A stretch of DNA of 64,000 nt, from the NCBI GenBank assembly GCA_040902485.1, contig JBBDXF010000029.1, forward strand, positions 244,318-308,317, read 5' to 3'. Source of the DNA: Myxococcota bacterium. Its GTDB lineage: Bacteria; Myxococcota_A; UBA9160; SZUA-336. Both the position numbers and the translations under genes were made by a program. Positions 14,269 to 64,000 of the stretch are shown here, piece after piece (position 1 is the stretch's first letter; every line of letters begins with the position of its first letter). Below the pieces are notes generated by a model. It saw only the letters and a program-made list of their open reading frames with translations. It searched no databases and was not told where the DNA came from.

Positions 14269-14284
14269 CCGCCGGCACGATAGC

Positions 14285-15553: not shown

Positions 15554-15557
15554 GTCC

Positions 15558-16202
15558 CTACCCCTTCATCTTGAAGCGCACGACCACCTGCTGGCCCGGA
15601 GCCTCGGTGGGCTTGCCCGCCTGCATCTGCGGCTGGTATTTCCACTTGTTCACGGCCTGCAGCGCGTTGCGCTCGAACACCGCGTCGCTCGACTGGATCA
15701 CGGCCGCGTCCTTGACCGAGCCCGCGGTCGAGATCGTGAAGCGCACCTGCACCCAGCCCTCGAGCTTGCGACGCTGCGCCTGCGGCGGGTACTGCGGCTC
15801 GACGCGCACGAGCGGGAGCGGCGCGCGATCGGCGAGCCCGGCGTTGAAGCCGAGTCCGCCCATGCCGGTGCCGTCCCCACCGCCGCCGCCAGCAGAGCCG
15901 AACTCGGCGCCGAGCCCCGCGGCTAGCGCTTGCACGTCGAGCGCGGCGTCGAAGCCCTCCTCCTTCGCGACCGACAGCGTCGGCGTGACCGGCGCCTGTT
16001 GCGGCTTCTCGCGCTCGGGCTTCTCGCGCTTCTTCTCCTCGATCTCGGTCTCGCGGCGCAGGCGCACGAACTCGACCTTGGTCACGGCCGACGCCTGGTC
16101 GTGCGCGCCGCGCGCGTTGGTCAGCGCGCGCATGAAGCCGAACAGTCCCACCGTCACGAGGAACGCGAGCGCGAGCGCGATCGGGAAGCGGAGCATCGCC
16201 AC
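15558..16202 (-). CDS. tonB: energy transducer TonB
   Basis: N-terminal TM segment, a Pro/Glu/Lys-rich spacer (EKKREKPEREKPQQAPV), and a C-terminal TonB domain (EGWVQVRFTISTAGSVKDAAVIQSS). Confidence 0.75.
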   Translation of the reverse strand: MAMLRFPIALALAFLVTVGLFGFMRALTNARGAHDQASAVTKVEFVRLRRETEIEEKKREKPEREKPQQAPVTPTLSVAKEEGFDAALDVQALAAGLGAEFGSAGGGGGDGTGMGGLGFNAGLADRAPLPLVRVEPQYPPQAQRRKLEGWVQVRFTISTAGSVKDAAVIQSSDAVFERNALQAVNKWKYQPQMQAGKPTEAPGQQVVVRFKMKG

Positions 16203-16205
16203 GCC

Positions 16206-16622
16206 TCACTCGCCCCCCACGCTGGCCGCGCCGATCGCGACCTGCTTGATGCCGCCGAGCGTGACCTCGTCCATCACCTGCGCGAGCAGGCCGCTCTTGG
16301 CGGCCTTATCGGCGATCACCACCACGGTGTCCTCGGGCCGCTCGATGTGCAGCCGCTCGATCAGCGGCCGCACCTCGCGCAGGTCGACCTGGCGCCAGTC
16401 CATCCAGACCTCGCCGTTGGAACGGATCGCGATCAGGATGTTGCCGGAGTCGTCGTGCGTCGCGGTGAGCGCTTCCGCGCGATTCACCGTGACGCCCGCC
16501 TCGCGCACGAACGAGGTGGTGACGATGAAGAAGATCAAGAGGTTCAGGACGAAGTCGAGCATCGGCGCGAGGTCGATGCCGTGTTCGTCAGCGGAGCTGT
16601 CGGCGTGCCGGCGCGAGCGCAT
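16206..16622 (-). CDS. exbD: biopolymer transport protein ExbD/TolR
   Basis: DLAPMLDFVLNLLIFFIVT is a canonical ExbD TM motif. 138 aa. Confidence 0.8.
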   Translation of the reverse strand: MRSRRHADSSADEHGIDLAPMLDFVLNLLIFFIVTTSFVREAGVTVNRAEALTATHDDSGNILIAIRSNGEVWMDWRQVDLREVRPLIERLHIERPEDTVVVIADKAAKSGLLAQVMDEVTLGGIKQVAIGAASVGGE

Positions 16623-16625
16623 GAC

Positions 16626-17039
16626 TCACCTCGATGAGGTTCCGAAGGACACGTTCTCGACGCCACCCTGGCGCACCTGATCGATCACCGCGACCAAGAG
16701 CCCCGTCTCGGCGTTCTGCTCGGCCGTGACCCTCACGCCCCAGTCCGGTCTTTGGGCGTGCAGGCGCTCGACGTTGGCGCGCACCGCGCGCACGTCGACC
16801 TCGCGGCTGTCGACGAGCACTTCGCCCGACTGCTTGACGACGACGGAGATGCTGCCGGTCTCCTTGCCGACGGCCGGCCCGCCCGCGCCGCCGCCGTGGC
16901 GGCCGACGTTCATGCCGACCTCCTTCACGAAGACGGCCGTGATGATGAAGAAGATCAGCAGGTTCAGGACGAAGTCGAGCATCGGCGCGAGGTCGATGCC
17001 GGTCGAATCCTCGTGATCGAAGTGTCTGCGCAGCCGCAT
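16626..17039 (-). CDS. exbD: biopolymer transport protein ExbD/TolR (second copy)
   Basis: Paralog with the same DLAPMLDFVLNLLIFFI motif. 137 aa. Confidence 0.8.
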   Translation of the reverse strand: MRLRRHFDHEDSTGIDLAPMLDFVLNLLIFFIITAVFVKEVGMNVGRHGGGAGGPAVGKETGSISVVVKQSGEVLVDSREVDVRAVRANVERLHAQRPDWGVRVTAEQNAETGLLVAVIDQVRQGGVENVSFGTSSR

Positions 17040-17040
17040 G

Positions 17041-17577
17041 TCAGTACACCAGCCGGTCGCCGAGCAGCTCCGTCTCCCGGCGGATGCGCGACGTGAAGTA
17101 GTAGACGGGATACAGGCCGGTGATGCTGACCATCAGCCCGGTGAGCGTGCAGATCATCGCCATCGAGACGCCGCTGGCCATCGCGCGCGCGTCTGCGGAG
17201 CCGCGGATCGCCATCGAGTCGAACACCTCGAGCATGCCGCTCACCGTGCCGACCAGGCCGAGCAGCGGCGAGAGCGGCACCAGCACGCGCAGCAGCACCA
17301 GGTTCGCGTTCATCGCCGTGTTGACGCGCGAGATCGTCGCGCGGCGGATCTGGCGCGCGCACCACGAGCGGTGCTCGCCGCGCGCCTGCCAGGCGGCCAG
17401 CGCGTCGCGCGCCTGCTTCGGCAACACCAGCGCGAAGTACCAGGCGCGCTCGATCACGAGCGTCCACATCACGAAGCCGCACAGGAAGATGCCGACGACG
17501 AACGGACCGCCCTCGTCGATCAGGCTCGCGACGGCGCCGAGCGGCCAGAGCAGCGCCTCGACGGCGTTCTCAAGCAT
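17041..17577 (-). CDS. exbB: MotA/TolQ/ExbB proton channel protein
   Basis: Three TM segments and the conserved LGLVGTVSGM motif. 178 aa. Confidence 0.8.
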   Translation of the reverse strand: MLENAVEALLWPLGAVASLIDEGGPFVVGIFLCGFVMWTLVIERAWYFALVLPKQARDALAAWQARGEHRSWCARQIRRATISRVNTAMNANLVLLRVLVPLSPLLGLVGTVSGMLEVFDSMAIRGSADARAMASGVSMAMICTLTGLMVSITGLYPVYYFTSRIRRETELLGDRLVY

Positions 17578-18937
17578 GCTGCGTCACTTCGCGGTGTCGC
17601 TCGAGACTCTCCGCCAGCAGCCCCGTGCTCTGCTCGTCGAGGATCTGCACGACCTGGCGCGAGAGCGAGGCGAGGCCCGCGTTCATGAACAGGAGCGGCA
17701 CGGCGATGCCGAGACCGAGCACCGTCGCGATCATCGCCTGACCGATGCCGTCGGCCATCAGCCGCGGATCGCTCGAGCCCGACTCGGTGATGCTCTGGAA
17801 GGTGATGATCATGCCGACGACCGTGCCGACCAGTCCGAGCAGCGGCCCCGCCGCCACCGCGAGGCGCAGGAAGGCCTGGAAGCGCTCCAGGCTCGGCACC
17901 TCGCGCAGCACCGCTTCGGAGATGCGCAGCTCGACCACCTCCGCGTCGGCCTCGATGTTCGCCGGGTCCGCTTTCACCGACGCCAGCACGCGGCCGAGCG
18001 GGTTGTCGTTCGAGAGCTGGTCGAGCCGGCCGAGCTGGCGCGTGACCGCGAGGCGCGTGCGGGTGAGGAAGAACGCCTGGTACGACGCGAGCAGGAAGCC
18101 GAGCACGCCGACGGCGATGATCACGTAGCCGACCGCCTCGCCCTTCTCGATGCGCTCCCACAGGTTCGGCCGCTGCACGATCATCGAGAGCAGCACGCCG
18201 CGCGACGGATCGACGGCCGCTGCCACGTAGCCTGCCTTTGCGGCCTGCAGGTTCCTCGCGAAGCTCACCAGGTCCGCGCCCGGCTGTCGCGAGAGCACGC
18301 TGAGTGAGCCGACGCTGGGCAGATAGCTGAGATAGCGGCCCTCCGACATGGCGATGAAGCCGCCGATGCGCACGACCTCGGCGTCCTGCGGCTTGCCGTC
18401 GGCGTCGACGATCGTGGTGCGGAAGCGCACGACCTGACCGCTCTCGGTCATCTCGCGCTGGATCTCGTACCAGAGCCGCTCGAGCTCCGCGATCGACGGC
18501 AGCTCCTTGGCCTTGCCGAGCCCCGCGAAGAACTCGTCGCGCTTGGGGAACTGCGCGCTCAAGAGCGAGTTGTACAGGATCGCCGAGCCGTCGCCGGCCA
18601 CCTGGCGCACCACGCCGAACAGCTCGCCGAGGCTGCCGAGGCGCTGGGTCATGCGCTCCTCGAGCTCCGCGAGCTTGACCTCGTTCGCGTCGAAGGTCGT
18701 GGAGAGCGCCTTGCTGCGCGCCTCGGCCGCGTCGCGCTCGCGCACGGCCTCGGCGAGCAGCGAAGCTTGTTTCTCGCGATTGGCGAGGAACGCCTTCTCG
18801 CGCGCGGCGTTCTCGCTCGCCTTGGCCGCGCGCGTGGTGCGCGTCTGCTCGAGCAGCTCGTCGAGGGATTCGACGGCGAAGGCGCGGCTCTCACCGAGCG
18901 CGAGCAGCAGCGCGATCGCGAGCGCGAGGGCCGACAT
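17570..18937 (-). CDS. MotA/TolQ/ExbB family protein with large N-terminal periplasmic coiled-coil domain (TtpC-like)
   Basis: Signal peptide MSALALAIALLLALG, a ~260-aa coiled-coil region, then the ExbB core (LGLVGTVVGMIITF). The upstream part of the 711-aa track ORF is rejected. Confidence 0.7.
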   Translation of the reverse strand: MSALALAIALLLALGESRAFAVESLDELLEQTRTTRAAKASENAAREKAFLANREKQASLLAEAVRERDAAEARSKALSTTFDANEVKLAELEERMTQRLGSLGELFGVVRQVAGDGSAILYNSLLSAQFPKRDEFFAGLGKAKELPSIAELERLWYEIQREMTESGQVVRFRTTIVDADGKPQDAEVVRIGGFIAMSEGRYLSYLPSVGSLSVLSRQPGADLVSFARNLQAAKAGYVAAAVDPSRGVLLSMIVQRPNLWERIEKGEAVGYVIIAVGVLGFLLASYQAFFLTRTRLAVTRQLGRLDQLSNDNPLGRVLASVKADPANIEADAEVVELRISEAVLREVPSLERFQAFLRLAVAAGPLLGLVGTVVGMIITFQSITESGSSDPRLMADGIGQAMIATVLGLGIAVPLLFMNAGLASLSRQVVQILDEQSTGLLAESLERHREVTQHA

Positions 18938-18942
18938 GCGCT

Positions 18943-19725
18943 TCACGACTTCGCCTCCTTCGGCGCGGGCACGGGCAGGATCAGCAGCTCGGGCGCGCGC
19001 GTCTTGCGCGCCACCGCGAGGCCTTCCTCGAAGCTGTGGCCGTAGTCGTCGTCGACGACCCAGGTCTGCGCGCGCGCGTCCCAGTAGCCGGTCTCCCGGC
19101 CGTCGAGCGTCTGGTACAGAAGCGCCGCGCGGCCGACGCGCAGGAACTGCACCGTGCGTGCATCGGCCGCGTCGCCGAGCTTCGCCTCGTAGGCCTCGAT
19201 CGTGCGCCCGTAGTCCATCTCCACCTGATACGCCTCGACGATGCGGCGGAACTTCTCGGAGATCGTCACGTCCGCGCGGCTCATCATCTGCTCGAGCCTC
19301 GCGACGCGATCGCGACGCTCCTCGAGCAGGAACGGCACGTCGAGCGCCACGAACTGCTCGAGCGTCGCGAGCATGCGCGTCATCAGCGGCGCGACCTCGC
19401 GCGAGGTCGTCTCGACCTCCACCAGCTGCGCTTGCATCCCGTTCATCTCGGTTTTCTGCGATTCGACCTGCGCCTCGAGCTGCCTGGCGTAGATCGTGTA
19501 GCTCTCGGCGTCCGCGAGCGCGCGCCGATACTCGGAGAGCAGCTTCTGGGTCTCGTCGTCGAGCTGGTTGATGCGCTCCTGCGACGCGCGCGCGGCCGCG
19601 TCGGTCGCGATCTGCTCCTTCACGACGCGGTCGAGCGCGTCCGCCGCCTGGGCGCCCGCGTGCATCGGTGCCAGCCAGAGCGCGCAGAGCAGCGCGATCC
19701 CCCACTTCATCGCCTGGTACTCCAT
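18943..19725 (-). CDS. DUF3450-like periplasmic coiled-coil protein (TtpB-like)
   Basis: Signal peptide, coiled-coil region, and a C-terminal DGRETGYWD…WVVDDDY segment. First gene of the TonB2-type cluster. Confidence 0.6.
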   Translation of the reverse strand: MEYQAMKWGIALLCALWLAPMHAGAQAADALDRVVKEQIATDAAARASQERINQLDDETQKLLSEYRRALADAESYTIYARQLEAQVESQKTEMNGMQAQLVEVETTSREVAPLMTRMLATLEQFVALDVPFLLEERRDRVARLEQMMSRADVTISEKFRRIVEAYQVEMDYGRTIEAYEAKLGDAADARTVQFLRVGRAALLYQTLDGRETGYWDARAQTWVVDDDYGHSFEEGLAVARKTRAPELLILPVPAPKEAKS

Positions 19726-23467: not shown

Positions 23468-26400
23468 TCAGAACGACAGCGAGTAGGTGAGCGAGATCGA
23501 GTAGTCCAAGCCGAGCTTTAGCGAGCGCTCCACCACCGTCCCGCGGGTCTGTTCCTCGTCGTAGATCACGCGCCGCTCGGAGTCGGTGAGGTTCTTGACG
23601 TTGCCCTTCAGCGTGACGTCGCCGCCGAGGGCGTTGACCTGCCAGGTCTGGCTGACGACGAGATTGAGCTGGTCGAACGAGTCGAGGTAGCGGTCCAGCG
23701 TGAGAGACAGGATCTCGCCGTTCTGCGAGGTCGCCGCGCTGCCCGCGGCGTCGAGGATCTCGCTGATCGCGAAATAGCTCAGCGTGATCTTCGTACCCCA
23801 ATCGGGATTGTCGTAGGAGAGGTCGACGTTCGCGATCCACTCCGGCTGGCCGAACAAGCGCCGGTCCTTCTCGTAGCTCGAGAACCTCACCGGAACCCCG
23901 TCGGGCGCGCCGAAGAAAGCGTTCGCGCGCGCGAGCTCGGCGTCGGTCCGGTCGACCTTGGCGTCGATGTAGGTGAAGTTCCCGCCGATCGAGAAGTACT
24001 GCGCGAAGTCGGGGCCGAGGAAGCCCAGGTTCTTGCGGCCCTCGACCTCGACGCCGTACAGCCTCGCCTCGGAGGGGTTGTTGAAGAAGGTGCGGAACAG
24101 CGCGCTCGACGAGCCTTCGGAGTTCAGCGGATTGCGAATGATGATGCTCTCGATCGGATCGTCGATCGTCTTGTAGAACACGCTGAAGGCCGCGAGGTCG
24201 CCCGTCTCGCCCCAGCTGTACTCGGTGCGGAGGTCGTAGCTGACCACGTCGGAGAGCTGGAGCTGAGGGTTGCCGACGATCAGATCGTCCGAGCCAGGCT
24301 CGACCGAAACGTAGTAGCCCAGCTCGCGGAACGACGGCCGGGCAACCGTCTGGGAGTAGGCGCCGCGAAGATTGAGCCCTTCGAGCGGACGGTAGGTGAA
24401 GCCGAACGCGGGCAGCACGCGATGCTCGTCGATCTCGCCGTCGATGAACGAGCGGATCTCGTCCTCGTCCGCCAGATCCACGAGACCGGTCGACGGATCG
24501 ATCGGCACCGCGATCCCCAGCAGCTGATCGTTGTAGGTCGCGTCCGCGTTCGGAGTTCCCTCGCCGCGAGCCGGATTGTCGAGCCGGTCGAAGAAGAGGT
24601 ACTTGGTCGGGAAGATCGCGGGCGTACCGTCCAGCGCGGGCTCGCCGGTGAACGGGTCGTTGTTCGACTCGATCAGGATCGATTCCCAGCGAGCCCCGGC
24701 GAGCAGATCCAGGTCATCCCAGATCGTGAGCTTCGCCCCGAAGTTGCCTGCCTGGATGTCGCGCGAGGAGTCGTTCTCGGAGTCGCGCGCCCCGCTGAAC
24801 TGGCCATTGGGCTCCAGGTCGAGATCGGTGCCAATGGTGCTGCCGAGACACTCGGCGGTCTCGCATGAGAGCGCGAACTGCGAGCTGCCCGAGACGGTCG
24901 GGCTCTCCAGAAAGTCCGACTCCACGTCCCGCTTCGCGTGCTCGTACCAGTATCCGCCGTCGAGCTTCAAGCGGAGCGCGCTCGAGAGATCGAACTCGTA
25001 GGCGACGTCGGCGCGCGCGAAGCTCTGCTTCTCGTGGACGTCGTTGCTGCTCGCGAAGATGCCATCGTTCACGTAGAAGCGGCCGGGGCCGAGTGAGTCG
25101 ACGGTGGAGGGGAACGTGGTGGGAACCTGCGACAGGTCGTCCGGCTCGTAGAAGTAGCGCGCGCCGAGCGATTCTTCCGTCTGGCTGGTTCTCGCGGTGT
25201 TCGCGGCCCAGCTCAGGTGAAGACCGTCGAGCGCGCCGATCGAGTGATCGCCGTTCAGCTGGTAGACGACGAGATCGCGCGTCACGTCGAACGAATCGCT
25301 CTCCGCAAAGCTGTCCCCGAACAGCGGGCCGCGGGTGACCGGCTCGCCGGTGTTGGCGCGAATCGACCGCGCGATCCAGGAGGACCTCGTCGCGGTCCCG
25401 TCGAAGGACGAAACGAAGACGTCATCGTTGTTGGCCTGCCGCTCCGCGAGCGGGCCGTAGTCGAAGCCCTCGAACCAGCCGTTCTGGTACAGCTGGACGG
25501 TCTTGTCCTTCTTCTCGGTGTAGAAGTAGTTCGCGTCGATCGTGTGCGCCCCGTCGGGATCGAGATCGAACCCGAGCCCCGCGTAGCCGGTCTTCTGCTT
25601 CGACTCCTCGCTCTCGGTCAGGTCGAAGGTGCCGTCGGAGAGCGCGAGCTCGCCGAGCGAGAGCCCTCCGGGGATGGGGACCGGAGCGGTGGCCGCGCGC
25701 TGCGGCTCGGCGGCGCTCTCCGTGCCCTCGCCGGTCTGGTAGTCGACTTCGCTGGCGCCGATCGCCTTGAAGCGGATCTCGCGCTCGAAGAGCGAGCCGC
25801 GGCCGCCGATCGACATGCCGAAGTCGCTCTCGGCCGTGTCCCAGCCGTCGGTCTGGCTGCCCGTCGGCGACCCGCCGTTGAGCTCGTAGAAGTCGTCGAC
25901 CGCGTTCGAGTTCCAGCCGCTGCCGGCGCTGAACTTGATCTCGAAGGACTCGGGGTACTCGTTGGTGAGGATGTTGATCGAGCCGCCGGAGGAATTGCTC
26001 GGCAGGTTCGGCCCGAAGGTCTTGGCGACGACCAGGTTCGTGACGATGTCGGAGGGGAACAGGTCGAGCTGCACCGACTGGCTGTCCGGGTCGGGGCTGG
26101 GCACGACCGCGGAGTTGTAGAGCGTGCTTGAGTAGCGGTCCTCCAGCCCGCGGATGATCGCGAACTGGCCCTCGACCACGTTCACGCCCGGCACGAACTT
26201 CAGCGCGTCGGCCACGTCGGACGCGGCGAACTTCGCGAACTCGGCGGCGTTCAGCGTGTTCAGGAGCTCGTCCGACTCCATGCGCGACGCGGCCAGGATC
26301 TCCTCCATCGGCGAGGCCTCGACCACGAACTCCTCGAAGCCCGGCATCTCTTCGGTCGCCTGCGGCGGCAGCGGCGGCAGCGGGAAGTCGGCGCGGTTCA

Positions 26401-26746
26401 CCTCGCCCGCCGTCACGGCGAAGCTCGTCATCAGCGAGACGCGGTAGCCCGACTTGGTGAACTTCACGCTGTAGCTGCCCGCGGGAACCCGCGGGAACTC
26501 GTAGGCGCCGGTCGCATCGGTGACCTGCTCCAGCTCGCGCGCAGCTCCTCCCGCGGCGCCGGGCGAGGGCGAGAGCGTCACCTTCACGCCCTCGATCGGC
26601 GCGGCGGACTCGCTGTCGATCAGCTGGCCGCGGATGCTGCCGGGAGCGGGTGGGGCTTCTTGCGCCCACGCCCGCGGCGCGAGCACGAGCGCGCACGCGA
26701 GCAAGAGAAGCCCGATGCGTGGGAGGGGAAGCTGGGTCGTCATCAC
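23468..26746 (-). CDS. TonB-dependent receptor with N-terminal carboxypeptidase-regulatory-like domain
   Basis: 1092 aa. Signal peptide, a CarbopepD_reg-like region (GQLIDSESAAPIEGVKVTL…TDATGAYEF), a plug domain, a long beta-barrel, and a C-terminal aromatic residue. Confidence 0.8.
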   Translation of the reverse strand: MMTTQLPLPRIGLLLLACALVLAPRAWAQEAPPAPGSIRGQLIDSESAAPIEGVKVTLSPSPGAAGGAARELEQVTDATGAYEFPRVPAGSYSVKFTKSGYRVSLMTSFAVTAGEVNRADFPLPPLPPQATEEMPGFEEFVVEASPMEEILAASRMESDELLNTLNAAEFAKFAASDVADALKFVPGVNVVEGQFAIIRGLEDRYSSTLYNSAVVPSPDPDSQSVQLDLFPSDIVTNLVVAKTFGPNLPSNSSGGSINILTNEYPESFEIKFSAGSGWNSNAVDDFYELNGGSPTGSQTDGWDTAESDFGMSIGGRGSLFEREIRFKAIGASEVDYQTGEGTESAAEPQRAATAPVPIPGGLSLGELALSDGTFDLTESEESKQKTGYAGLGFDLDPDGAHTIDANYFYTEKKDKTVQLYQNGWFEGFDYGPLAERQANNDDVFVSSFDGTATRSSWIARSIRANTGEPVTRGPLFGDSFAESDSFDVTRDLVVYQLNGDHSIGALDGLHLSWAANTARTSQTEESLGARYFYEPDDLSQVPTTFPSTVDSLGPGRFYVNDGIFASSNDVHEKQSFARADVAYEFDLSSALRLKLDGGYWYEHAKRDVESDFLESPTVSGSSQFALSCETAECLGSTIGTDLDLEPNGQFSGARDSENDSSRDIQAGNFGAKLTIWDDLDLLAGARWESILIESNNDPFTGEPALDGTPAIFPTKYLFFDRLDNPARGEGTPNADATYNDQLLGIAVPIDPSTGLVDLADEDEIRSFIDGEIDEHRVLPAFGFTYRPLEGLNLRGAYSQTVARPSFRELGYYVSVEPGSDDLIVGNPQLQLSDVVSYDLRTEYSWGETGDLAAFSVFYKTIDDPIESIIIRNPLNSEGSSSALFRTFFNNPSEARLYGVEVEGRKNLGFLGPDFAQYFSIGGNFTYIDAKVDRTDAELARANAFFGAPDGVPVRFSSYEKDRRLFGQPEWIANVDLSYDNPDWGTKITLSYFAISEILDAAGSAATSQNGEILSLTLDRYLDSFDQLNLVVSQTWQVNALGGDVTLKGNVKNLTDSERRVIYDEEQTRGTVVERSLKLGLDYSISLTYSLSF

Positions 26747-26890
26747 GGCGTGCGCGGATCAGAGCGCAGCGATGCGAGGGTGCCAGGACGACCTCGTGAG
26801 AGATCCGAGGCGATTCGACGACGAGCCGGAGAGCGAGCGCACGGTGACGATCGCGTGACGCCGCGGACCGCCGTGCCCGCGCGCCCTCGC

Positions 26891-38040: not shown

Positions 38041-38130
38041 GAAAGCAGCGCCGCCGCGCGTGGGCCGATGGCCGCCGCGGTGGCTGACCATTCCTTGTCG
38101 TCGCGGCGCAGGCCGCGGCGTGGAGCGCGC

Positions 38131-40197
38131 ATGTTCCGATCCTCCGTTCGTTCTTCCGTTCGACGCTTTGCAGCCGTCTCGATCCTGTGTCTCGCGTCGG
38201 CCCCGTTGGCCTCTGCCGAGGACGATCCTCCGCCGGGCGCCGAGGACCACCGCGAGCCGGGCCACCAGGTCGAGGAGATCGTCATCACGGGCAGCCCGCT
38301 GGCCAAGAGCGTGGACGACCTGTCGCAGCCCGTGAACGTGCTCGGCGGCGACGAGCTGCTGATCTCGACCGAGCCGACTCTCGGTGAGACGCTCGCCGAC
38401 GAGCCGGGTCTCAGCTCGAGCTATTTCGGCCCGGGCGCGAGCCGCCCGATCATCCGCGGTCTCGACGCCGATCACATTCGCGTCTTGCGCAACGGCCTGG
38501 GCGCGATGGACGCCTCGGCCGCGAGCGCCGACCACGCGGTCACGATCGATCCGCTCGCGGTCGAGCGCATCGAGGTCGTGCGCGGGCCGAGCGCCCTGCT
38601 GTACGGTCCGACCAGCGTCGGCGGCGTGGTCAACGTGATCGACAATCGCATTCCCGACGAGCCGATCGACGGGGTCACCGGCCTGTTCGAGGGCTCGCTC
38701 GATTCAGTCGATCGCGGCACCAACGGCGCGGTGGTGCTCGAGGGCGGCGTGGGCGGGTTCCAGATCCACACCGATGGCCTGGCGCACCGCTCGCGGAATC
38801 TCGACATCCCGTCGTACGCGCGCTCGTCGAAGCTGCGGAGTACGGATCCGCTTCCGCCCGGAGAGCCGGAAGAGAAGGGGTCGCTCGAGAACAGCCAGAT
38901 CGACACCTACGCGAGCTCGATCGGCATCTCCTACGCCGGCGAGCGTGGCTTCATCGGCGTCGCACCCTCCGCCTTCGACAGCGACTACGGCACGGTCGCC
39001 GAGAAGGAGGTCACGATCGACATGCACGAGCGCCGCTGGGACTTCGCGGGGGGACTCCATCGACCGATCGACGGCGTCGAGAGCGTGCGCGGCAAGTTCG
39101 CGCTGTCCGACTACCAGCACATCGAGTTCGAGGGCGCGGAACAGGGCACGGTGTTCAAGCGGCGCGCCTACGAGGGCAGGCTCGAGGCGCTGCACGGCGC
39201 GCTCGGCCCGGTCAAAGGGGCGATCGGCGGACAGCTCTTCCGCAGCGACTTCTCGGCGCAAGGCGAGGAGGCATTCCTGCCGCCGTCGCTCACGCGCGGT
39301 TACTCGGCGTTCGTGCTCGAAGAGCTGCACGCGCCGTCGCTCCTGTTCCAGTTCGGCGGGCGCCTGGACTGGACGGACATCCGCACGGACTCCAGCGCGG
39401 ACTTCGGTCCGTCGCAGAAGCGCGACCGGCGGACGGGCAGCGGCGCGATCGGCGCGAGCTACGAGATCGACGACGAGTACACGCTCGCCGCAAACTACGC
39501 CTACACGCAGCGCCCGCCGCTTGCGCAGGAGCTGTTCGCGAACGGCCCGCACGTGGCGACCGACGCCTTCGAAATCGGCGATCCGGATCTCGATGTCGAG
39601 GAGTCGCTCGGCTTCGACCTGACGCTGCGCAAGGACGCGGGCTTTGTCACCGGCAGCCTCTCCGGCTTCTACCTGTACTTCGACGACTTCATCGCGCTGC
39701 AAGCCACGGGGCTGGTCGACCCGGTCGACGGCCTGCCGATCTTCCAGTACGTGAACATGCCGGCGACGTTCCTGGGCGGCGAGGCGGAGCTCACCTTGCA
39801 TCTGATCGAGACGGGCGAGCAGAGCCTGCACCTCGACCTGCGCGCCGACTACGTGCGCGCGCGCGATCGCGACAGCGGCGATCCGCTGCCGCGCATTCCG
39901 CCCTTCCGCTTCGGCGCGGAGCTCGCGTACCACGCCGGGCCGTTGCACGCGTCCGCGGGCGTGCTGCACGCGGCCGGCCAGAGCCGCACGGCCGACTTCG
40001 AGTTCTCGACCGACGAGTACACGCTGCTCGACGCGCGCGTCTCGTACGAGCTGCTGGTGCGCACGACCAAGGTCGTGTTCTTCGTGGTCGGCTCGAACCT
40101 CGCGAACCAGACCGCGCGCAACAGCGCGTCGTTCCTGAAGGAGGTGGCCCCGCTGCCCGGCCGCGGCGTGCGCGGCGGCGTCCGGCTCGCGTTCTAG
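38131..40197 (+). CDS. TonB-dependent receptor (metal/siderophore-type, 22-strand barrel)
   Basis: Signal peptide, a TonB box region, a plug (…VVRGPSALLYGPTSVGGVVNVI…), a beta-barrel, and a C-terminal …VRGGVRLAF. Confidence 0.8.
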   Translation: MFRSSVRSSVRRFAAVSILCLASAPLASAEDDPPPGAEDHREPGHQVEEIVITGSPLAKSVDDLSQPVNVLGGDELLISTEPTLGETLADEPGLSSSYFGPGASRPIIRGLDADHIRVLRNGLGAMDASAASADHAVTIDPLAVERIEVVRGPSALLYGPTSVGGVVNVIDNRIPDEPIDGVTGLFEGSLDSVDRGTNGAVVLEGGVGGFQIHTDGLAHRSRNLDIPSYARSSKLRSTDPLPPGEPEEKGSLENSQIDTYASSIGISYAGERGFIGVAPSAFDSDYGTVAEKEVTIDMHERRWDFAGGLHRPIDGVESVRGKFALSDYQHIEFEGAEQGTVFKRRAYEGRLEALHGALGPVKGAIGGQLFRSDFSAQGEEAFLPPSLTRGYSAFVLEELHAPSLLFQFGGRLDWTDIRTDSSADFGPSQKRDRRTGSGAIGASYEIDDEYTLAANYAYTQRPPLAQELFANGPHVATDAFEIGDPDLDVEESLGFDLTLRKDAGFVTGSLSGFYLYFDDFIALQATGLVDPVDGLPIFQYVNMPATFLGGEAELTLHLIETGEQSLHLDLRADYVRARDRDSGDPLPRIPPFRFGAELAYHAGPLHASAGVLHAAGQSRTADFEFSTDEYTLLDARVSYELLVRTTKVVFFVVGSNLANQTARNSASFLKEVAPLPGRGVRGGVRLAF

Positions 40198-56699: not shown

Positions 56700-57164
56700 A
56701 TGAACCCGAACATGAAGACGCAGCGAATACTCCTGGCGATCGCCCTGGCCTCGAGCTTCGAGCTCGCGCGCGAAGCGCTTGCGGACGGCGACGTGGGTCT
56801 CGATGTGCAGACGCAGGTCCAGCCGGCTGAAACGGACGTCGATGACGACAGCGACGACAGCCGCGAAATGGACGTCGACGAGGCCGGCGACTCGAGTCGC
56901 GAACAGGACGTCGATGACGCGGCTGACGAGGACCGCGAGCTCGATGTCGACGACGCGGACGACGCGAGCCGCGAACAGGAGCTCGACGACGCCGACGATC
57001 CCGACCGCGAGGTCGACGTCGACGAGGCCGGCGATCCCGACCGTGAAGAGGACGTCGACGACGTGACCGACGAGTCGCCCGGCTCGCTGGATGGCGACGA
57101 AGGCGAGAGCGACGAGGAAGTCGAAGCCGTACCGGTCGACGAGGACGAGGACGAAGAGAACTAG
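56700..57164 (+). CDS. secreted highly acidic repeat protein (Asp/Glu-rich, ~12-aa repeats)
   Basis: Signal peptide MKTQRILLAIALASS, then about six repeats of SRExDVDDAxDE. Roughly 45% D+E, consistent with possible Ca2+ binding. Confidence 0.5.
   Translation: MNPNMKTQRILLAIALASSFELAREALADGDVGLDVQTQVQPAETDVDDDSDDSREMDVDEAGDSSREQDVDDAADEDRELDVDDADDASREQELDDADDPDREVDVDEAGDPDREEDVDDVTDESPGSLDGDEGESDEEVEAVPVDEDEDEEN
56836..57074 (+). repeat. about 6.5 tandem 36-bp coding repeats (GACGTCGAYGAsgcnGAcgannnnCGCGAaca-like)
   Basis: Seen directly in the sequence; encodes the acidic repeats of 56700..57164. Confidence 0.5.
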
Positions 57165-57883
57165 GCGGACTGGCGCAGCCGCTCGGTCGCGATCGCGGAC
57201 ACCGCCGCCTGCAGGTTGTAGCAGGGGATGAAGCCCGCCATCGGCACGCGGATCGACGCGTCGCAGCGGGCGAGCAGCTCCGGCGGGATGCCGCCGTTCT
57301 CGCCACCCACCACGAACACGCGCGGTCCGGTCAGATCGACCTGCCAGGGCGCGTGCTCGCCCGACTCGTCGAGCGCGATCACGCGGTGGCCGTGCGCGCG
57401 CGCGGCGTCGAGCACCTCGAGCGCCTTGCGCCAGTAGACCGGCATGAACTTGTCGGCGCGCATGGCGGCGCGCAACGCCGAGCGCTTGGCCTCGTGGTCG
57501 AAGCTACCGTCGATCGCGATCGCATCGGCGCCCGACACTTCGGCGGTTCGGACGACCATGCCGATGTTGCCCGGATAGGCGACGCCGACCAGCAGCCAGA
57601 GCGCGCCGCCGCGCGCGAGTGTGGCCTCGAGATCGGCGTCCGGGTCGCGGCCTACCAGCGCCAGGATCTCCTGCGCGGGGCGCACGTGACACAGGCGCGT
57701 GACGACGTTGCGCGTCGCCAGCCGCACCTCGATCCCGAGCTCGCGCGCGCGCGTGACCAGCGGCGCCACCTCTTCGTGGCGGGCGTCCTCCTGCACCAGC
57801 AGGAGGCGCACGTCCTCACCCGCGCGCAACGCGGCCGCGATCGCTTCGGGACCGGCGAGCTGTCGCACGCGAGGCTCTTTCAC
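57161..57883 (-). CDS. TrmH/SpoU family RNA 2'-O-methyltransferase (RlmB-like)
   Basis: N-terminal substrate-binding domain, then SPOUT motifs (…LLVGVAYPGNIGMVVRTAEVSGADAI…, …VFVVGGENGGIP…RVPMAGF…SLNLQAAVS-like). GTG start with no upstream in-frame ATG. Confidence 0.65.
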   Translation of the reverse strand: MKEPRVRQLAGPEAIAAALRAGEDVRLLLVQEDARHEEVAPLVTRARELGIEVRLATRNVVTRLCHVRPAQEILALVGRDPDADLEATLARGGALWLLVGVAYPGNIGMVVRTAEVSGADAIAIDGSFDHEAKRSALRAAMRADKFMPVYWRKALEVLDAARAHGHRVIALDESGEHAPWQVDLTGPRVFVVGGENGGIPPELLARCDASIRVPMAGFIPCYNLQAAVSAIATERLRQSA

Positions 57884-57894
57884 TTTGCCGGAGC

Positions 57895-59667
57895 TTACGG
57901 GAGAAACGGCGCGCAGACATGCGCGATGCCGGATGCGGCGCCCGCGAGGGCCCGGCGCAGGCGCACGGCGTCGATCAGGTCGCAGCCGGCCGATCCGCCC
58001 ACGTCGCACTTCTCGGGCGCGGGCAGCGCTCCGAGCGAGCCGGCCAGGAAGGCGCGCAGCGCGTCGACGTCGTCGCCGTCGACAATGCCGTCGTCGCTCG
58101 GATCGCCGCACTGGCAGCCGTCGCCGATCCCGTCGGCCAGCGGCGTCGCGACCCCGCCGGAGTCGAGCTGACCGCTGGTCGCGTCCACGGGGCACACGTC
58201 GAGCGCGTCCTCGACGCCGTCGCCGTCCCAGTCGCCGGTCGCGGCCGGCACGGTTCCGCCGAGGTGCCCGCGCACGACGTAGCCGGTCGGGCTCCCGGTC
58301 GCGAACAGCAGATCGCTGCCCGCCAGTCCGCCCGCGCTGTTGCCGTGCAGGAGCATCGGGCCCGGACAGCACTCCACGCCAATCTGCCCGGCCGGTGCCG
58401 TGGCCGCCAGCGTCTGGGCGACACCGAAGCGCGACGGCAGCAGCGGATGGGGCCGCGACAGGTTGCGCGGGTCGAACGCGAGCAGCGCGAGACCCCCGTC
58501 GTTGAACGAGGTGGCGGCCAGGAAGTCGCCCGACGCGCCAAAGCGCACCTGCGGCACGTACGAGTAGATCCCGCTCGAGCCGGGCGGCGGCGCGAGCACG
58601 ATCGGGTTCGCGCCGCCGCGGATCACGCGCTCGCGCAGGCACGGCACGCCGCCGGCGCTCGGGTCGCTGGTGCCGTTGCACGTCGGCCGCTGCAGGCGCG
58701 CGTCGACGGGCGCGGTCGGAAGCGCCGCCACGTCGCGCACGTCGACCGCGACGAGCTGGCGCAGCGTGGTCGAGCCCGCCACCGCGACGGAGCCCGTCGG
58801 GTCGAGCGCGAGCGAGCGCCCCGCAGGATTGCCGGGTCCGAGCGGGATCGAGCCGACCAGCAGACCCGTCGCTACCTCGACCACGTCGATGCTCCCCTGC
58901 CCCGTCACGAGCGGCGGAAAGCTCACGTCGAAGAGCCCCGCGTTCGTCACCGCGACGCGTCCGCCAGGAAGCTCGGTGAGCGCGATCGGATTCGGGTCGG
59001 ACGTGATCGCGTAGAACGGGCTCGCCGGCGCGACCGTCGTGGTCGGGCCGGAGTCGTCGATGCTGAAGAACAAGAGCGTTCCGGGATTCCAGATCGGGCT
59101 CGAGCCGGACTGCCGGATGTTCGAGGTGGCGACGACCAGGCGATTGCCGATGCGCAGCGCGGCGCTGGTGAAGTTGGTGGTGAAGCTCGCGATCGAGAGC
59201 GGCGCGCCGCTGCTCGGATAGGTGGTGAAGCTGCCCGCGATCACGTGCCGCGCCGGCACCGAGCTGCGGCTCGCGCCCGAGTAGAGCAGCGGCCAGCCCG
59301 CGCCAGTCGCGTAGTCGAACGGCACCACGAGCTCGCACACCGACGTCGTGAGCCAGCCGCGTGTCTCGCCGGTTCCGCGCTCGAGCGAGAAGTTCCCCAC
59401 CTTCGGCACGAGCTGCACGGGATTCACGAAGCAGCTGGCGGGCTCGTAGGCGAGCACGTAGTACGCGCCGGCCCAGCCGAGCGGGTGGGCCGGGGTCATC
59501 TGCAGCTGGTACACGCCGGGCGCACCGACCGGCGCCGCGACGAACGCGCGGTTCGGATCGGTCGGGTGCGCCTCGAGCCCGGCCGGGAACTGCACGACCT
59601 GCAGCGCGTCCATCGAAGCGGAGCCGACCGTGAGCGTGGCGGCGAGCAGCACGGCGGCGGCGCTCAC
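57895..59667 (-). CDS. secreted repeat protein (beta-propeller-like) with Asp/Cys-rich C-terminal module, co-transcribed with the BtuB-like receptor
   Basis: GTG start in a GTGA overlap with the receptor stop. Signal peptide VSAAAVLLAATLTVGSAS. Internal repeats (…RLVVATSN…, …GRVAVTNAG…, …GSVAVAGST…). C-terminal DWDGDGVEDALDVCP…GDGCQCGDPSDDGIVDGDDVDALRAF is TSP3/dockerin-like Ca-binding sequence. Confidence 0.5.
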   Translation of the reverse strand: MSAAAVLLAATLTVGSASMDALQVVQFPAGLEAHPTDPNRAFVAAPVGAPGVYQLQMTPAHPLGWAGAYYVLAYEPASCFVNPVQLVPKVGNFSLERGTGETRGWLTTSVCELVVPFDYATGAGWPLLYSGASRSSVPARHVIAGSFTTYPSSGAPLSIASFTTNFTSAALRIGNRLVVATSNIRQSGSSPIWNPGTLLFFSIDDSGPTTTVAPASPFYAITSDPNPIALTELPGGRVAVTNAGLFDVSFPPLVTGQGSIDVVEVATGLLVGSIPLGPGNPAGRSLALDPTGSVAVAGSTTLRQLVAVDVRDVAALPTAPVDARLQRPTCNGTSDPSAGGVPCLRERVIRGGANPIVLAPPPGSSGIYSYVPQVRFGASGDFLAATSFNDGGLALLAFDPRNLSRPHPLLPSRFGVAQTLAATAPAGQIGVECCPGPMLLHGNSAGGLAGSDLLFATGSPTGYVVRGHLGGTVPAATGDWDGDGVEDALDVCPVDATSGQLDSGGVATPLADGIGDGCQCGDPSDDGIVDGDDVDALRAFLAGSLGALPAPEKCDVGGSAGCDLIDAVRLRRALAGAASGIAHVCAPFLP

Positions 59668-61754
59668 GGCGTCGCCCCGCGCAGGCGCACCAGCCAGAGC
59701 GTCTGGTTCGGCAGCGGCTGGCCGATCGAGTCGTAGCGCTGCTCGTGGTTCAGGTTCGCGGCCTCGATCGAGAGCGCGACGCTCGGGGGAAGGAACTCGA
59801 AGCCCGGCACGCGCTGCGGGCGCAAGATCACACCCGCATCCACCTGGAAGCCCGCCTCGGCTAGCGTCGGGTTGCCCACCTGGTACGAGACCTCGCTCTC
59901 GTAGCGGATCTCGGTCCACGGCTCGACGGGCCCCAGGTCGAGCGAAGCGGAGAGCGCCACCCGGTCCTCCGGCACGTGCGGGAATACGCGCTCGACGCCG
60001 CTCGCGAACGCCGCCCCGCTGCCCGTCCCGCCGAGGTAACGCGTGTCGGTGTAGGTGTAGCCGACGCCGAGCTGCAAGCGTTCGAAGAGCCGAGCGCCCA
60101 CGCCGAGCTCGAAGCCCAGCGCGCGCGTCGGACCGGTGTTGACCGGCATGAAGGCGTTGCTGGCGGTGAACATCCACTCGATGCCCTCGTCGATCTCGCG
60201 CTGGAACACGTCGGCCGAGAAGTGCAGATCGCGAACCGGTCCCACGCCGCGGCTTGCGAGCTCGAAGCCGAGGTCCGCGTTCCAGCCGCGCTCGGAGAGC
60301 AGCGCCGGATTGCCGCGGATGAAGCCCCAGTCGGGATGGAACAGGTCGGTGAACGTGGGCCGCCGCGCCACGCGCTTCCAGTTCGCCTTGGCGCGCAGGC
60401 CGGGGGCGAGCTGCCAGATCGCGCCCACCGACGGCAGCCAGGCATTCTCGTCGCGCGGCGACACTTCGACGAGCGGCTGCGACGCGGCCGAGCGCGCCAG
60501 CCCGTCGCTGGTGTCCGCGCGCTCGAAGGCGAGCGCCGGGAAGATGCGCAGCTCGCCGCCGAAGAAGCTGAGCTCCGACGCGACCGAGACCAACACCGTC
60601 GTGCGTCGGTGGATCTCCGCGTCCGAGGAGTCGACGCGCGCGTAGCGCAGGCTCGAGGCCGCGCGGCCGCCCAGCTCGACCCAGTCGAACGAGAGCGGAT
60701 CTGCCACCCAGCGCGTGTCGAGCGACGACTCGGATTCGCGGATGACTGCGGAGTCGCGCCCGCCCGTCACCAGCGGATTCACGAACTCGCAGGCACCGGC
60801 GGGATCGTCGAGCCGGTCCTCTTCGGCGCGGAACGCTCCTGCCACCTCGAAAGCGCCGCCGAGCGCGCGCTCGTGGCTCCAGCCCAGACGCAGGAGGCCT
60901 CGCTCGTACGACTCGTCCGAAGTGGTGCACGAGAGCGGGTCGTCGGTGATGAAGAACGGCTTTGCCCAGGTGCTGCCCGGCTCGCCGCCGTCCTTCTGGT
61001 ACAAGTCGAGCGTCGCGTCGAGCCGCGAGCGCGCGCCGGTCGCGAGCGTGCCGCGCAGGAGACCCGCGTTCTCGACGAAGTCCGCGTTGAGACGCGTGTG
61101 CGAGATCGTGCCGATCGGCACCGGCTGGCCCGGAAGCGGGTTGGGGACGAACTCGGGCGCCTCGACTTCGAAGCGGTAGTCGTTGTCGCTGCGCAGGCGC
61201 GAGAAGGTCGCGAGCGCCTGCCCGCGCTCGCCGCCGCCGGAGAGCGTGAGATCGCCGCCGAGCGTCTCGTACGTGCCGGCGCTGAGCGACGCGTCGGCCG
61301 CGGGATCGGCGCTCTCCGGCTTGCGCGTGGTGATCGCGATGACGCCGCCCTCGGCGCCGCTGCCGAAGCGCGCCGAGCCGCCCCCGCGCAGCACCTCGAT
61401 GCGCTCCACCTGGCGCAGCGGGATCGTCGACAGATTCACCGCTCCGCGCTGCGCGCTGTTGAGCCGCACGCCGTCGACCAGCACGAGCACCTGCTCGGCC
61501 TTCGAGCCGCGGATCGAGGCGGTGCTGGCCGAGCCGAGCCCGCCGTAGCGCTGCACGCGCACGCCCGGAACCTGGTCGAGCAGCTCGGCCACGGTCGCGA
61601 AGCGCTCGTCGTAGTCGCGCGCTTCGATCACGGTCGAGAACGCCGAGGGATCCTCGGCCGATTCGGACAGCTCGCCGGCTACACCGTACGGTGCAACCGC
61701 GAACAGAGCTGCGAGGACCGCATTGCCTGCGATCCGGTTGGATTTTCGTCGCAC
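59664..61754 (-). CDS. TonB-dependent receptor, BtuB-like (cobalamin/corrinoid outer-membrane transporter candidate)
   Basis: Signal peptide, TonB box region, plug (…VERIEVLRGGGSARFGSGAEGGVIAITT), 22-strand barrel, and a C-terminal aromatic residue. Immediately downstream of a cobalamin riboswitch on the same strand. Confidence 0.8.
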   Translation of the reverse strand: MRRKSNRIAGNAVLAALFAVAPYGVAGELSESAEDPSAFSTVIEARDYDERFATVAELLDQVPGVRVQRYGGLGSASTASIRGSKAEQVLVLVDGVRLNSAQRGAVNLSTIPLRQVERIEVLRGGGSARFGSGAEGGVIAITTRKPESADPAADASLSAGTYETLGGDLTLSGGGERGQALATFSRLRSDNDYRFEVEAPEFVPNPLPGQPVPIGTISHTRLNADFVENAGLLRGTLATGARSRLDATLDLYQKDGGEPGSTWAKPFFITDDPLSCTTSDESYERGLLRLGWSHERALGGAFEVAGAFRAEEDRLDDPAGACEFVNPLVTGGRDSAVIRESESSLDTRWVADPLSFDWVELGGRAASSLRYARVDSSDAEIHRRTTVLVSVASELSFFGGELRIFPALAFERADTSDGLARSAASQPLVEVSPRDENAWLPSVGAIWQLAPGLRAKANWKRVARRPTFTDLFHPDWGFIRGNPALLSERGWNADLGFELASRGVGPVRDLHFSADVFQREIDEGIEWMFTASNAFMPVNTGPTRALGFELGVGARLFERLQLGVGYTYTDTRYLGGTGSGAAFASGVERVFPHVPEDRVALSASLDLGPVEPWTEIRYESEVSYQVGNPTLAEAGFQVDAGVILRPQRVPGFEFLPPSVALSIEAANLNHEQRYDSIGQPLPNQTLWLVRLRGATP

Positions 61755-61789
61755 CGAGTGACTCCCTCCGCGGAGAGCGGGACTCCCAT

Positions 61790-61965
61790 CCCGATCACTC
61801 GGCAGGTCTCCTGGCTCAGGGGTCTGGCGCCGGAATCGAGCCTTCCCCGGGATCGCTCCCGAGTGGCGTCTTTCGATCCGACTCCCCCATCACAGTGGCG
61901 GGACCGCGGCCGATTTTCACGGCCTTCCCTCTTAGGTCCGCGACGCGGACACCGAGTGCCGCCAT
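61790..61965 (-). ncRNA. cobalamin (B12) riboswitch in the 5' leader of the BtuB-like receptor
   Basis: The minus-strand read contains AGGGAAGGCCGTGAAAATCGGCCGCGGTCCCGCCACTGTGATGGG (GGGAA…GGTG.AA..CC…CCCGCCACTG B12 box) and the 3' AGCCAGGAGACCTGCC element. Ends about 40 nt before the receptor start. Confidence 0.7.
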
Positions 61966-62059
61966 CGGTATCACCCGCTGCGCAACGCTGTCAACCTCTT
62001 CAAGCACTTGACGTCGGGGCTTGACGTGTCGGCGGCGAGCGCGTACTTCTCGCCACGTA

Positions 62060-62225
62060 CGAGTCGCGGAAGGTGTCGGGAAGCCGGTGTGAATCCGGCG
62101 CGAGCCCGTCGCTGTAACCGGGGACGAACGCCGCACTCCGAGCCATCGGAGCGGAGCCACTGGGATCGCAGGATCCTGGGAAGGCGCGGCGTGAGGACGA
62201 TCCGGGAGCCAGAAGACCGGCCTTC
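62060..62225 (+). ncRNA. cobalamin (B12) riboswitch in the 5' leader of the PEP-CTERM protein gene
   Basis: The plus-strand read contains GGGAAGCCGGTGTGAATCCGGCGCGAGCCCG…, the B12 box GCCACTGGGA, and the 3' AGCCAGAAGACCGGCC. Followed by AAAGGAA and the ATG at 62270. Upstream TTGACG-N17-TACTTC is a plausible promoter. Confidence 0.7.
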
Positions 62226-62269
62226 CGCAGGGAAAGAAAACTTCTCCGGCAGCGAGAAAGGAATCCACC

Positions 62270-63076
62270 ATGCGAGTCCTCGGTCTTCTATTGCTCTGCG
62301 TCTTCGCGCGCCCCGCTTTCGCGTCGTCGTTCGCCACGCAGGTCGTGAGCTACACGGCCGGCACGAACGTTCTCACCGGCTACGACGATCCGCTCTCGTC
62401 GCTCGGCGAGCCCGCGCGCTCGACGGGCACGGGCCCGTTCGACGGCGACGTGACGCCGTTCAACGCGCCCTACACCGCCGATCAGGTCGTGGGAGTCGGC
62501 GCCGGCGGCGAGCTGGTGCTGCGCTTCGATCACCAGGTGACCGACGATCCTGAGAACCTGTACGGCATCGACCTCTTGATCTACGGCAACGCGTTCCTCG
62601 GCCTCTCCTTCGAGACCTTCCTCGCCGACGGCACGGTGTTCGGCGAGCCGGCGCGCGTCGCCGTGAGTCAGGACGGATCGCTGTGGATCGACGCGACCGG
62701 GCTGTTCGCGGACGATCTCTTCCCGACGCTCGCGTACCAGGATCCGCCGGGTCCGTTCTCGAGCGGCGGCACGATCCCGACCAGCTTCACGCGCCCGGTC
62801 GATCCGTCGCTCGACGCGTCGGACTTCAACGGTCTCGACACCGCGCAGATCGCGGCGCTCTACGGCGGCGGCGCGGGCGGGCTCGGCATCGACCTCGGCG
62901 CGCTCGGACTGCCGTGGATCGAGTACGTGCGCATCTGGCAGCCGAGCGGCGACGGCTACGCGTCCGAGATCGACGCCATCGCCGACGTGCCGGAGCCCGC
63001 TTCGCGGACACTGCTCGGCGTCGCCGCGCTCGCGCTCATTTCGCGTCGAGCGCGAACACGCCGTCCCAGTCGCTAG
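62270..63076 (+). CDS. PEP-CTERM sorting domain-containing secreted protein (B12-riboswitch controlled)
   Basis: Signal peptide MRVLGLLLLCVFARPAFA. C-terminal DVPEPASRTLLGVAALALISRRARTRR. No known catalytic motif. Confidence 0.6.
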   Translation: MRVLGLLLLCVFARPAFASSFATQVVSYTAGTNVLTGYDDPLSSLGEPARSTGTGPFDGDVTPFNAPYTADQVVGVGAGGELVLRFDHQVTDDPENLYGIDLLIYGNAFLGLSFETFLADGTVFGEPARVAVSQDGSLWIDATGLFADDLFPTLAYQDPPGPFSSGGTIPTSFTRPVDPSLDASDFNGLDTAQIAALYGGGAGGLGIDLGALGLPWIEYVRIWQPSGDGYASEIDAIADVPEPASRTLLGVAALALISRRARTRRPSR

Positions 63077-64000
63077 GCGGCGGATCGGCCCCGTAGGCGC
63101 TTCCGCGCGCCTGGAGCATGCGCGCGGGGGCGTCGTCGGGAGCGAGCTGGAGCAGCCGCGCGAGCGCGCGCGCGGACGCGTCCCAGTCGCGGGCGCGGTA
63201 GGCCGCGAGCGCCTCGGCGTAGTGCGCGAGCACGTTCAGCGTGCGCGCGTCGACCTCGCCGGCCAGGCCGACCAGCTCGAAGATGCGCACCTCGGCGCGC
63301 CGGCCCAGCACGCGCACGGTGTCGAGCTCGCGCGTGACGAAGCCCTCGCCGGCCCGCGCGCGCGTCGCTTCCGAGATCAGTACGCGCGTGCCGTACGCCT
63401 TGTTCGCGCCCTCCAGGCGACTCGCCAGGTTCATGCCGTCGCCGACCACGCCGTAGGTGCCCCGCTCGACGGAGCCGATCTCGCCGGCGACGAGCTCGGC
63501 CGTGTGCAGACCCATGCGATAGCGCGGAGCGAGCACGCCGCGCTCCGACCAGCGCGCGCACAGCGCGTCGAGCCGGATCGACGCGGCCAGCGCGGCGCGA
63601 CAGGCGCGGGGCGCGTGGTCCGGCTGCTCGATCGGCGCGCCCCAGAACGCCACCACGCCGTCGCCCTGGAACTCCTTGACGGTGCCGTCGTGCTCGAGCA
63701 CCGCCCCGCAGACCGCCTCGAAGTACTCGTTCAGGTGCGCGACCACCGCCTCGGGCTCGAGCTCCTCCGCGAGCTCGGTGAAGCCGCCGAGGTCGACGAA
63801 CAGCACCGTCAGCTCGCGACGCACGCCCGCGAGCGCCGCTCGGCCCGGCGCGCGCAGCAGCTCCGCGGCCACGCCCTTCGAGACGTAGCGCTCGAGCGTC
63901 TGCTTGATCAGCTCGCGCTCGGCGAGTCCCGACGCCATCTCGTTGAAGGCTGCGCCGAGCGCCTCGAGCTCGTCGCCGGTCCCGATCTCGACGCGCGTCT
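63036..64000 (-). CDS. class III adenylate/guanylate cyclase catalytic domain protein (N-terminus beyond the window)
   Basis: LTVLFVDLGGFTELAE…FQGDGVVAFWGAP…GLHTAELVAGEIGS…YGVVGDGMNLASRLEG is the CYTH-unrelated class III cyclase core. The ORF is open to the window edge. Confidence 0.7.
   Translation of the reverse strand, partial: TRVEIGTGDELEALGAAFNEMASGLAERELIKQTLERYVSKGVAAELLRAPGRAALAGVRRELTVLFVDLGGFTELAEELEPEAVVAHLNEYFEAVCGAVLEHDGTVKEFQGDGVVAFWGAPIEQPDHAPRACRAALAASIRLDALCARWSERGVLAPRYRMGLHTAELVAGEIGSVERGTYGVVGDGMNLASRLEGANKAYGTRVLISEATRARAGEGFVTRELDTVRVLGRRAEVRIFELVGLAGEVDARTLNVLAHYAEALAAYRARDWDASARALARLLQLAPDDAPARMLQARGSAYGADPPPSDWDGVFALDAK

Follow-up and report, generated by a model that had tools for sequence, protein, structure and literature searches.

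The locus described here lies in a 64,000-nucleotide (nt) stretch of a Myxococcota genome (hereafter the window, to whose positions coordinates refer unless a related locus is named), where two cobalamin (vitamin B12) riboswitches stand head to head in a single intergenic region and head divergent transcription units. The minus-strand unit encodes a BtuB-like outer-membrane receptor and a secreted beta-propeller, and the plus-strand unit encodes a 268-amino-acid (aa) secreted protein. The family of this last protein is the new element, the riboswitches and the BtuB-like receptor being of already known kinds. An earlier sequence-only reading had proposed the twin riboswitches and named the kinds of gene behind them; as a whole its interpretation is supported, and all of its gene calls hold. 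The features concerned are the following.

57895..59667, minus strand: secreted 590-aa protein, a seven-bladed beta-propeller followed by a C-terminal Cys-rich thrombospondin-3/dockerin-like Ca-binding region
59664..61754, minus strand: BtuB-like TonB-dependent outer-membrane receptor of 696 aa with a GTG start, identified by Pfam, NCBIfam and PDB matches
61752..61783, minus strand: expression platform, with a small hairpin, then a hairpin that holds the Shine-Dalgarno (SD) sequence, then the GTG start (61754-61752)
61971..61784, minus strand: RF00174 aptamer heading the btuB-like operon (121.2 bits, E = 7e-30, model positions 1-189 of 189)
61972..62053: spacer of 82 nt separating the aptamers at their 5' ends, with -35-like hexamers
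62054..62239, plus strand: RF00174 aptamer, P2-less variant, heading the gene of the 268-aa protein (92.1 bits, E = 1.5e-21, model positions 1-189 of 189)
62240..62272, plus strand: expression platform, with the conserved small hairpin CUUCUCCGnnAGCGAGAA, then the SD sequence GAAAGGAA (62256-62263), then the ATG at 62270
62270..63076, plus strand: BtuH-like secreted protein of 268 aa, with a signal peptide (residues 1-18), a jelly-roll (residues ~20-238) and a PEP-CTERM tail (residues ~239-268)

Scanning of the entire window with cmscan (Rfam 15) returns only two matches, both to the Cobalamin family RF00174, and the gathering score of 31.5 bits is exceeded on both strands across the full aptamer. 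The twin-riboswitch finding is real at these coordinates and far beyond chance; both strands pass the covariance-model threshold on which the sequence-only reading had staked its proposal. Three details of its description need correction. The plus copy lacks the P2 hairpin, whose 23 consensus positions are replaced by 2 nt in the RF00174 alignment, and it has an insertion of ~16 nt within the peripheral extension. A GCCACTG B12 box had been assigned to each copy; in the minus copy the canonical box is GCCACUC (61867-61861), with pairing of its final base compensated in P5, and the literal GCCACTG (61899-61893) belongs to the J3/4-P4 region. The minus copy also carries CGUGAAAAUCGG instead of the GGUG.AA.CC element expected in both, and the 3' AGCCAG(G/A)AGACC(U/G)GCC elements match their earlier description in the two copies.

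Both riboswitches are ordinary members of RF00174 that any Rfam-based annotation can find. Like other class I riboswitches of the adenosylcobalamin type (e.g. the Escherichia coli btuB leader), they comprise a complete core, a peripheral extension and the 3' AGCCAGGAGACCUGCC element, and they directly precede genes assigned to B12 uptake, each aptamer ending ~30 nt 5' of the start of its own gene on the same strand (61754 on the minus and 62270 on the plus strand). They differ from the class in that two independent copies stand head to head in one intergenic region of 515 nt, and in that the plus copy is devoid of P2. Conserved L5-L13 kissing-loop complementarity was looked for and none was identified, and a literature search for divergent paired cobalamin riboswitches found nothing.

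The head-to-head layout with a btuB-like gene is conserved in this lineage, recurring in nine other loci (L001, L002, L003, L005, L006, L008, L009, L018 and L059). The two aptamers of the window are only 56% identical to each other, whereas the minus aptamer is 70-83% identical to its orthologues in all nine loci and the plus aptamer is 77-79% identical to the plus-side aptamers of the closest ones (L001, L002, L005 and L006). Because identity across the copies is so much lower than that between orthologues, the pair is old, and on either side riboswitch and gene have co-evolved; the same values led to the rejection of a recent event of inverted aptamer duplication. The P2-less architecture is kept within the plus lineage (alignment A5) and is a lineage trait of the plus copy.

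Each leader places a hairpin next to the SD sequence. On the minus strand, CUCUCC (61777-61772), a GCG linker and GGAGGGAG (61769-61762) form a hairpin whose 3' arm, GGAGGGAG, is the SD sequence; the segment GCUCUCCGnGGAGGGAGU found 3' of the minus aptamer is invariant in nine of nine aligned loci (alignment A4) and is paired as a hairpin by both RNAfold and RNAalifold. On the plus strand, the hairpin CUUCUCCGnnAGCGAGAA stands directly before the SD sequence GAAAGGAA, as judged from alignment A5 and folding. A search of both leaders for intrinsic terminators gave no terminator-like hairpin with a U tract. Two candidate switching interactions were discarded: pairing of the P1 3' arm with the btuB start-codon region is found in the window, L001, L002, L003 and L006 and is missing in L008, L009 and L018, and the helix that RNAalifold draws between the GGGA core and a UCCC further 3' involves invariant columns and is uninformative. 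The E. coli btuB riboswitch exerts translational OFF control upon B12 binding. With their short distance to the start codon, SD-proximal hairpin and lack of a terminator, the window leaders resemble it, and by this analogy they would be translationally switched off when B12 binds, possibly with secondary effects on Rho-dependent termination or decay. As to transcription, the spacer contains one -35-like hexamer on the minus strand (TTGACA, 61994-61989) and two on the plus strand (TTGACG, at 62008 and at 62021); a strict sigma-70 scan found nothing, and the 82-nt spacer contains no -10 element of consensus grade. Judging from the hexamers, both divergent promoters must presumably lie within this spacer.

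The operon behind the minus riboswitch bears out the earlier assignment of a BtuB-like receptor followed by a secreted repeat protein. The 696-aa receptor has the architecture of TonB-dependent receptors, a plug and a 22-stranded barrel (Pfam Plug PF07715, 1.1e-23; TonB_dep_Rec_b-barrel PF00593, 5e-30). Its top NCBIfam match is TIGR01779 (TonB-B12) at 129.5 bits, under the equivalog cutoff of 599.7, and NF007926 follows at 89.4 bits, under a cutoff of 836; its best PDB sequence matches are E. coli BtuB (5e-19) and 8p98, 'Vitamin B12 transporter BtuB'. The GTG start of the propeller gene overlaps the TGA stop of the btuB-like gene (GTGA). This arrangement, in which one cobalamin riboswitch heads the gene of a TonB-dependent B12 receptor and then that of a secreted seven-bladed propeller, resembles the BtuB-BtuG transporter-lid pair of Bacteroides (PMC10404256); as for BtuG, the 590-aa propeller is encoded beside btuB. 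A TonB/Exb-type gene cluster is found within the same window (13117-19725, minus strand), with a TPR protein, a TonB_C protein (15561-16205), a DUF3450 protein (18946-19725) and small open reading frames (ORFs) at 16209-17583. The window also encodes two more TonB-dependent receptors (23471-26758 on the minus and 38041-40194 on the plus strand), one with an N-terminal CarboxypepD_reg domain and neither with an Rfam riboswitch.

On the other side of the spacer, the plus riboswitch precedes a secreted PEP-CTERM protein, as had been read from the sequence. The signal peptide of the 268-aa protein ends in a predicted cleavage site (...ARPAFA|SS) with no lipobox cysteine, and its C-terminus (...DVPEPASRTLLGVAALALISRRARTRRPSR) is the tripartite PEP-CTERM signal made of VPEP, a hydrophobic helix and RRARTRR, which aligns with the tails of its relatives. 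The PEP-CTERM hidden Markov model (PF07589, TIGR02595 class) scores the window copy at 15.6 bits (E = 0.018), under the Pfam gathering score of 20.7; matches at E <= 1 occur in 46 of 63 relatives (best 1.3e-7), several full-length ones being above the cutoff. Pfam and NCBIfam scans of the protein and of these 63 relatives, with matches up to E <= 1 included, give no domain besides PEP-CTERM, and no DUF4465. No exosortase (EpsH/Xrt) is found among the scanned ORFs of the window. An identical protein carries the NCBI locus tag WEF50_13635 in a Myxococcota metagenome-assembled genome (MAG).

The relatives of this protein form a large and well-conserved family (alignments A1 and A2), whose invariant or nearly invariant residues include F64/N65, F86, N107, W139, Y198, the GGG 203-204 loop, D208 and D235. 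A family profile searched against 1.84 billion cluster representatives retrieves 2611, 1134 and 500 proteins at E <= 1e-3, 1e-10 and 1e-30, respectively, and GTDB species genomes contain at least 575 loci encoding family members. Eighty loci with relatives 39-91% identical were fetched, originating from Myxococcota or 'Deltaproteobacteria', Planctomycetota/Phycisphaerae, Omnitrophota and a few others, and Rfam was run on 76 of them. In 64 of these 76, an RF00174 match on the plus strand precedes the family gene itself or heads the operon to which this gene belongs. Among the 12 loci with no such match, six have less than 500 nt of upstream DNA, two (L007 and L056) are truncated inside a tandem or operon array, and L030 has a match where one is expected, though of sub-threshold score (29.2 bits). 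Within a genome, well under 1% of the genes stand behind a cobalamin riboswitch; since the linkage holds in about 64 of 70 related loci, and across phyla, it is a defining property of the family, and no other functional argument speaks as strongly for a role connected with corrinoids. This association across family and phyla is an aspect that the sequence-only reading missed. The one clear exception in regulatory input is L013, from a Desulfobacula MAG, where a c-di-GMP-I-GGC riboswitch (RF03167, 64 bits, 794-877) takes the place of the cobalamin riboswitch, ~900 nt upstream of the family member (1796-2560).

Tandem copies of the BtuH-like gene occur in L007 (3-2634), L024 (3069-4750), L025 (2659-4756) and L056 (554-2301), and in L024 and L025 a single riboswitch heads the array. 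In L044, a Pirellulales MAG, two adjacent matches to the Acido-Lenti-1 small RNA (RF01687), just above threshold and on opposite strands, lie directly 3' of the family gene (1318-1499). In the Planctomycetota/Phycisphaerae loci among L010-L080 (e.g. L014, 3273-7247, and L011, L012, L019, L023, L034, L046 and L063), the cobalamin riboswitch heads an operon with the BtuH-like gene first. The second gene often encodes a PQQ_2-type beta-propeller of ~550 aa with a dockerin (L014, 4701-6356), and next comes the gene of a ~290-aa protein bearing an N-terminal methylation motif of the prepilin type (ORF cluster 2, 63 of 81 loci); there is no adjacent TonB-dependent receptor. These operons suggest a B12 acquisition module of different design. 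The merging of the family gene with the ~550-aa downstream ORF by ORF clustering was rejected, BLASTP giving no similarity and stop-to-stop segments having spanned both genes; most of the long 'multidomain' members of the family result from gene calls that were merged, and have the PEP-CTERM motif in mid-protein. Such merging could also account for P0339 (859 aa), P0333 (1003 aa) and P0263 (633 aa), where another region stands N-terminal to the BtuH-like domain; that of P0339 is a PQQ_2 propeller, and the order of domains is the same as in Bacteroides BtuG1 (propeller and H domain).

What the 268-aa protein may do is indicated by its predicted fold, which matches the B12-binding domain of BtuH, a B12-capturing protein of Bacteroides. 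In the structure comparison, the two BtuH-type domains, those of BtuH2 (BT1956-57, PDB 7BIZ) and of the H-domain of BtuG1 (PDB 8BLW) from Bacteroides thetaiotaomicron, rank above every lectin module by both Z and identity. The B12 site of BtuH2 comprises Y510, W511, W577, H476, N399 and Q333. A profile of 63 family members searched against all PDB sequences gave no relevant match, 7BIZ and 8BLW remaining unmatched at E <= 10, so the link to BtuH is drawn from structure and context. The protein shares with BtuH the fold, the secreted status and the genomic logic, namely a cobalamin-riboswitch-controlled locus with btuB. It differs from BtuH in several respects: two defining features, homology detectable by sequence and lipoprotein status, are missing; it is a single-domain protein devoid of PKD domains or a fused propeller; it carries a PEP-CTERM/exosortase signal (with a dockerin in some family members) instead of a lipid anchor; and it is expressed from a separate transcript with a riboswitch of its own. 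The BtuH family, delineated by BLAST at E <= 0.03, was described in gut Bacteroidetes and three Firmicutes (PMC8941943), whereas the present family is found in Myxococcota, Planctomycetota and others. DUF4465/BtuJ (PF14717) is likewise a secreted B12-binding accessory family with a jelly-roll, occurring in many phyla and in riboswitch-regulated loci, which shows that accessory B12 binders extend beyond Bacteroides (PMC13398666). Literature searches combining PEP-CTERM with cobalamin riboswitch, BtuH or B12 gave nothing on point within the searchable library. Its BtuH-like nature, which had escaped the sequence-only reading, makes the 268-aa protein a probable B12-capture protein, as opposed to a surface protein of unrelated function placed under B12 control by chance.

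Taken together, the locus is likely to be a corrinoid acquisition locus induced by B12 starvation, in which two divergent units, each with its own class I cobalamin riboswitch, supply a BtuH-like capture protein and a BtuB-like transporter. When intracellular coenzyme B12 is scarce, the SD sequences would be accessible in both leaders. The minus unit would then yield the BtuB-like outer-membrane transporter with the translationally coupled secreted beta-propeller, and the plus unit the 268-aa protein, which would be exported by Sec and, by way of its PEP-CTERM tail, sorted by an exosortase to the cell surface or the exopolysaccharide layer. There, its jelly-roll could capture corrinoids and deliver them to the transporter. 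In B12-replete cells, the ligand would lock the aptamers, the SD regions would be occluded and translation repressed, with secondary Rho or decay effects being likely.

Other explanations have been weighed against this acquisition model. The 268-aa protein could bind corrinoids for a purpose independent of the adjacent BtuB-like transporter, such as competitive hoarding, storage as a reservoir, or remodelling and the scavenging of precursors (cobinamide). Most Planctomycetota loci, with a PQQ-type propeller and/or a prepilin-like protein following the family gene and no neighbouring TonB-dependent receptor, speak for this idea, and a preprint on Bacteroides proposes a reservoir role for the DUF4465 protein BtuJ1 (bioRxiv 10.1101/2025.07.01.662609). 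In the window and the nine related loci, however, the gene is always head to head with the btuB-like operon, which fits a functional partnership, and the proposal appears unlikely. Similarly improbable is that the protein is a carbohydrate-binding surface adhesin of the CBM32/discoidin-like type with no direct role in the handling of B12, the riboswitch merely tying its expression to B12 status, for example within a programme that governs matrix or lifestyle. Cobalamin riboswitches overwhelmingly precede genes for B12 transport, B12 biosynthesis or B12-independent isozymes, and this, together with the ranking of BtuH-type domains above lectin modules and the retention of the riboswitch ahead of the gene in different phyla, speaks against an adhesin. 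Finally, it is very improbable that one riboswitch is a decaying copy that lost its regulatory role, as the opposite orientation of two copies 82 nt apart (which could stem from inverted duplication) and the missing P2 might suggest, since each copy resembles its positional orthologues more than its partner, both score far above threshold across the whole model, the P2-less form is conserved in the plus lineage, and plus-type linkage exists in phyla devoid of the minus copy.

Beyond the two units, the immediate neighbourhood contains the following genes.

57161..57883, minus strand: SpoU/TrmH-family RNA 2'-O-methyltransferase (Pfam SpoU_methylase, 2.5e-24; SpoU_sub_bind, 9.4e-8)
63036-63938, minus strand: class III adenylate cyclase, convergent to the gene of the 268-aa protein and directly following it

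The plus unit is monocistronic, because the convergent cyclase gene comes next. The SpoU gene lies 11 nt after the stop of the propeller gene on the same strand, and it may be co-transcribed with the B12-regulated operon, in which case it would be an odd passenger. A 154-aa ORF at 56700-57164 on the plus strand has a signal-peptide-like N-terminus followed by an extremely acidic repeat (...DVDD/E...DRE...).

Surface capture of B12 by accessory proteins (BtuG, BtuH and BtuJ) has been worked out so far mainly in gut Bacteroides. The present locus suggests that the same strategy is used by soil and aquatic Myxococcota and Planctomycetota, with a BtuH-fold domain that escapes recognition by sequence methods and with different anchoring. 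Tentatively, and with much less confidence than is placed in the locus model itself, the 268-aa protein may found a widespread and as yet unannotated corrinoid-capture family (at least 500 clusters at 50% identity for the strictest E-value, in addition to the GTDB loci), defined by the BtuH fold, by exosortase/PEP-CTERM or dockerin anchors and, in nearly all cases, by a cobalamin riboswitch of its own; the Planctomycetota operons would then point to B12 uptake independent of any adjacent BtuB. This amounts to a functional prediction and not to a new principle, but it would give hundreds of 'hypothetical proteins' a testable function, link exosortase sorting with micronutrient scavenging and provide a compact candidate B12 binder of ~220 aa. 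The riboswitch pair in turn offers a naturally occurring example in which one ligand is read by two independent sensors with a shared promoter region, useful for comparing dose responses within one cell.
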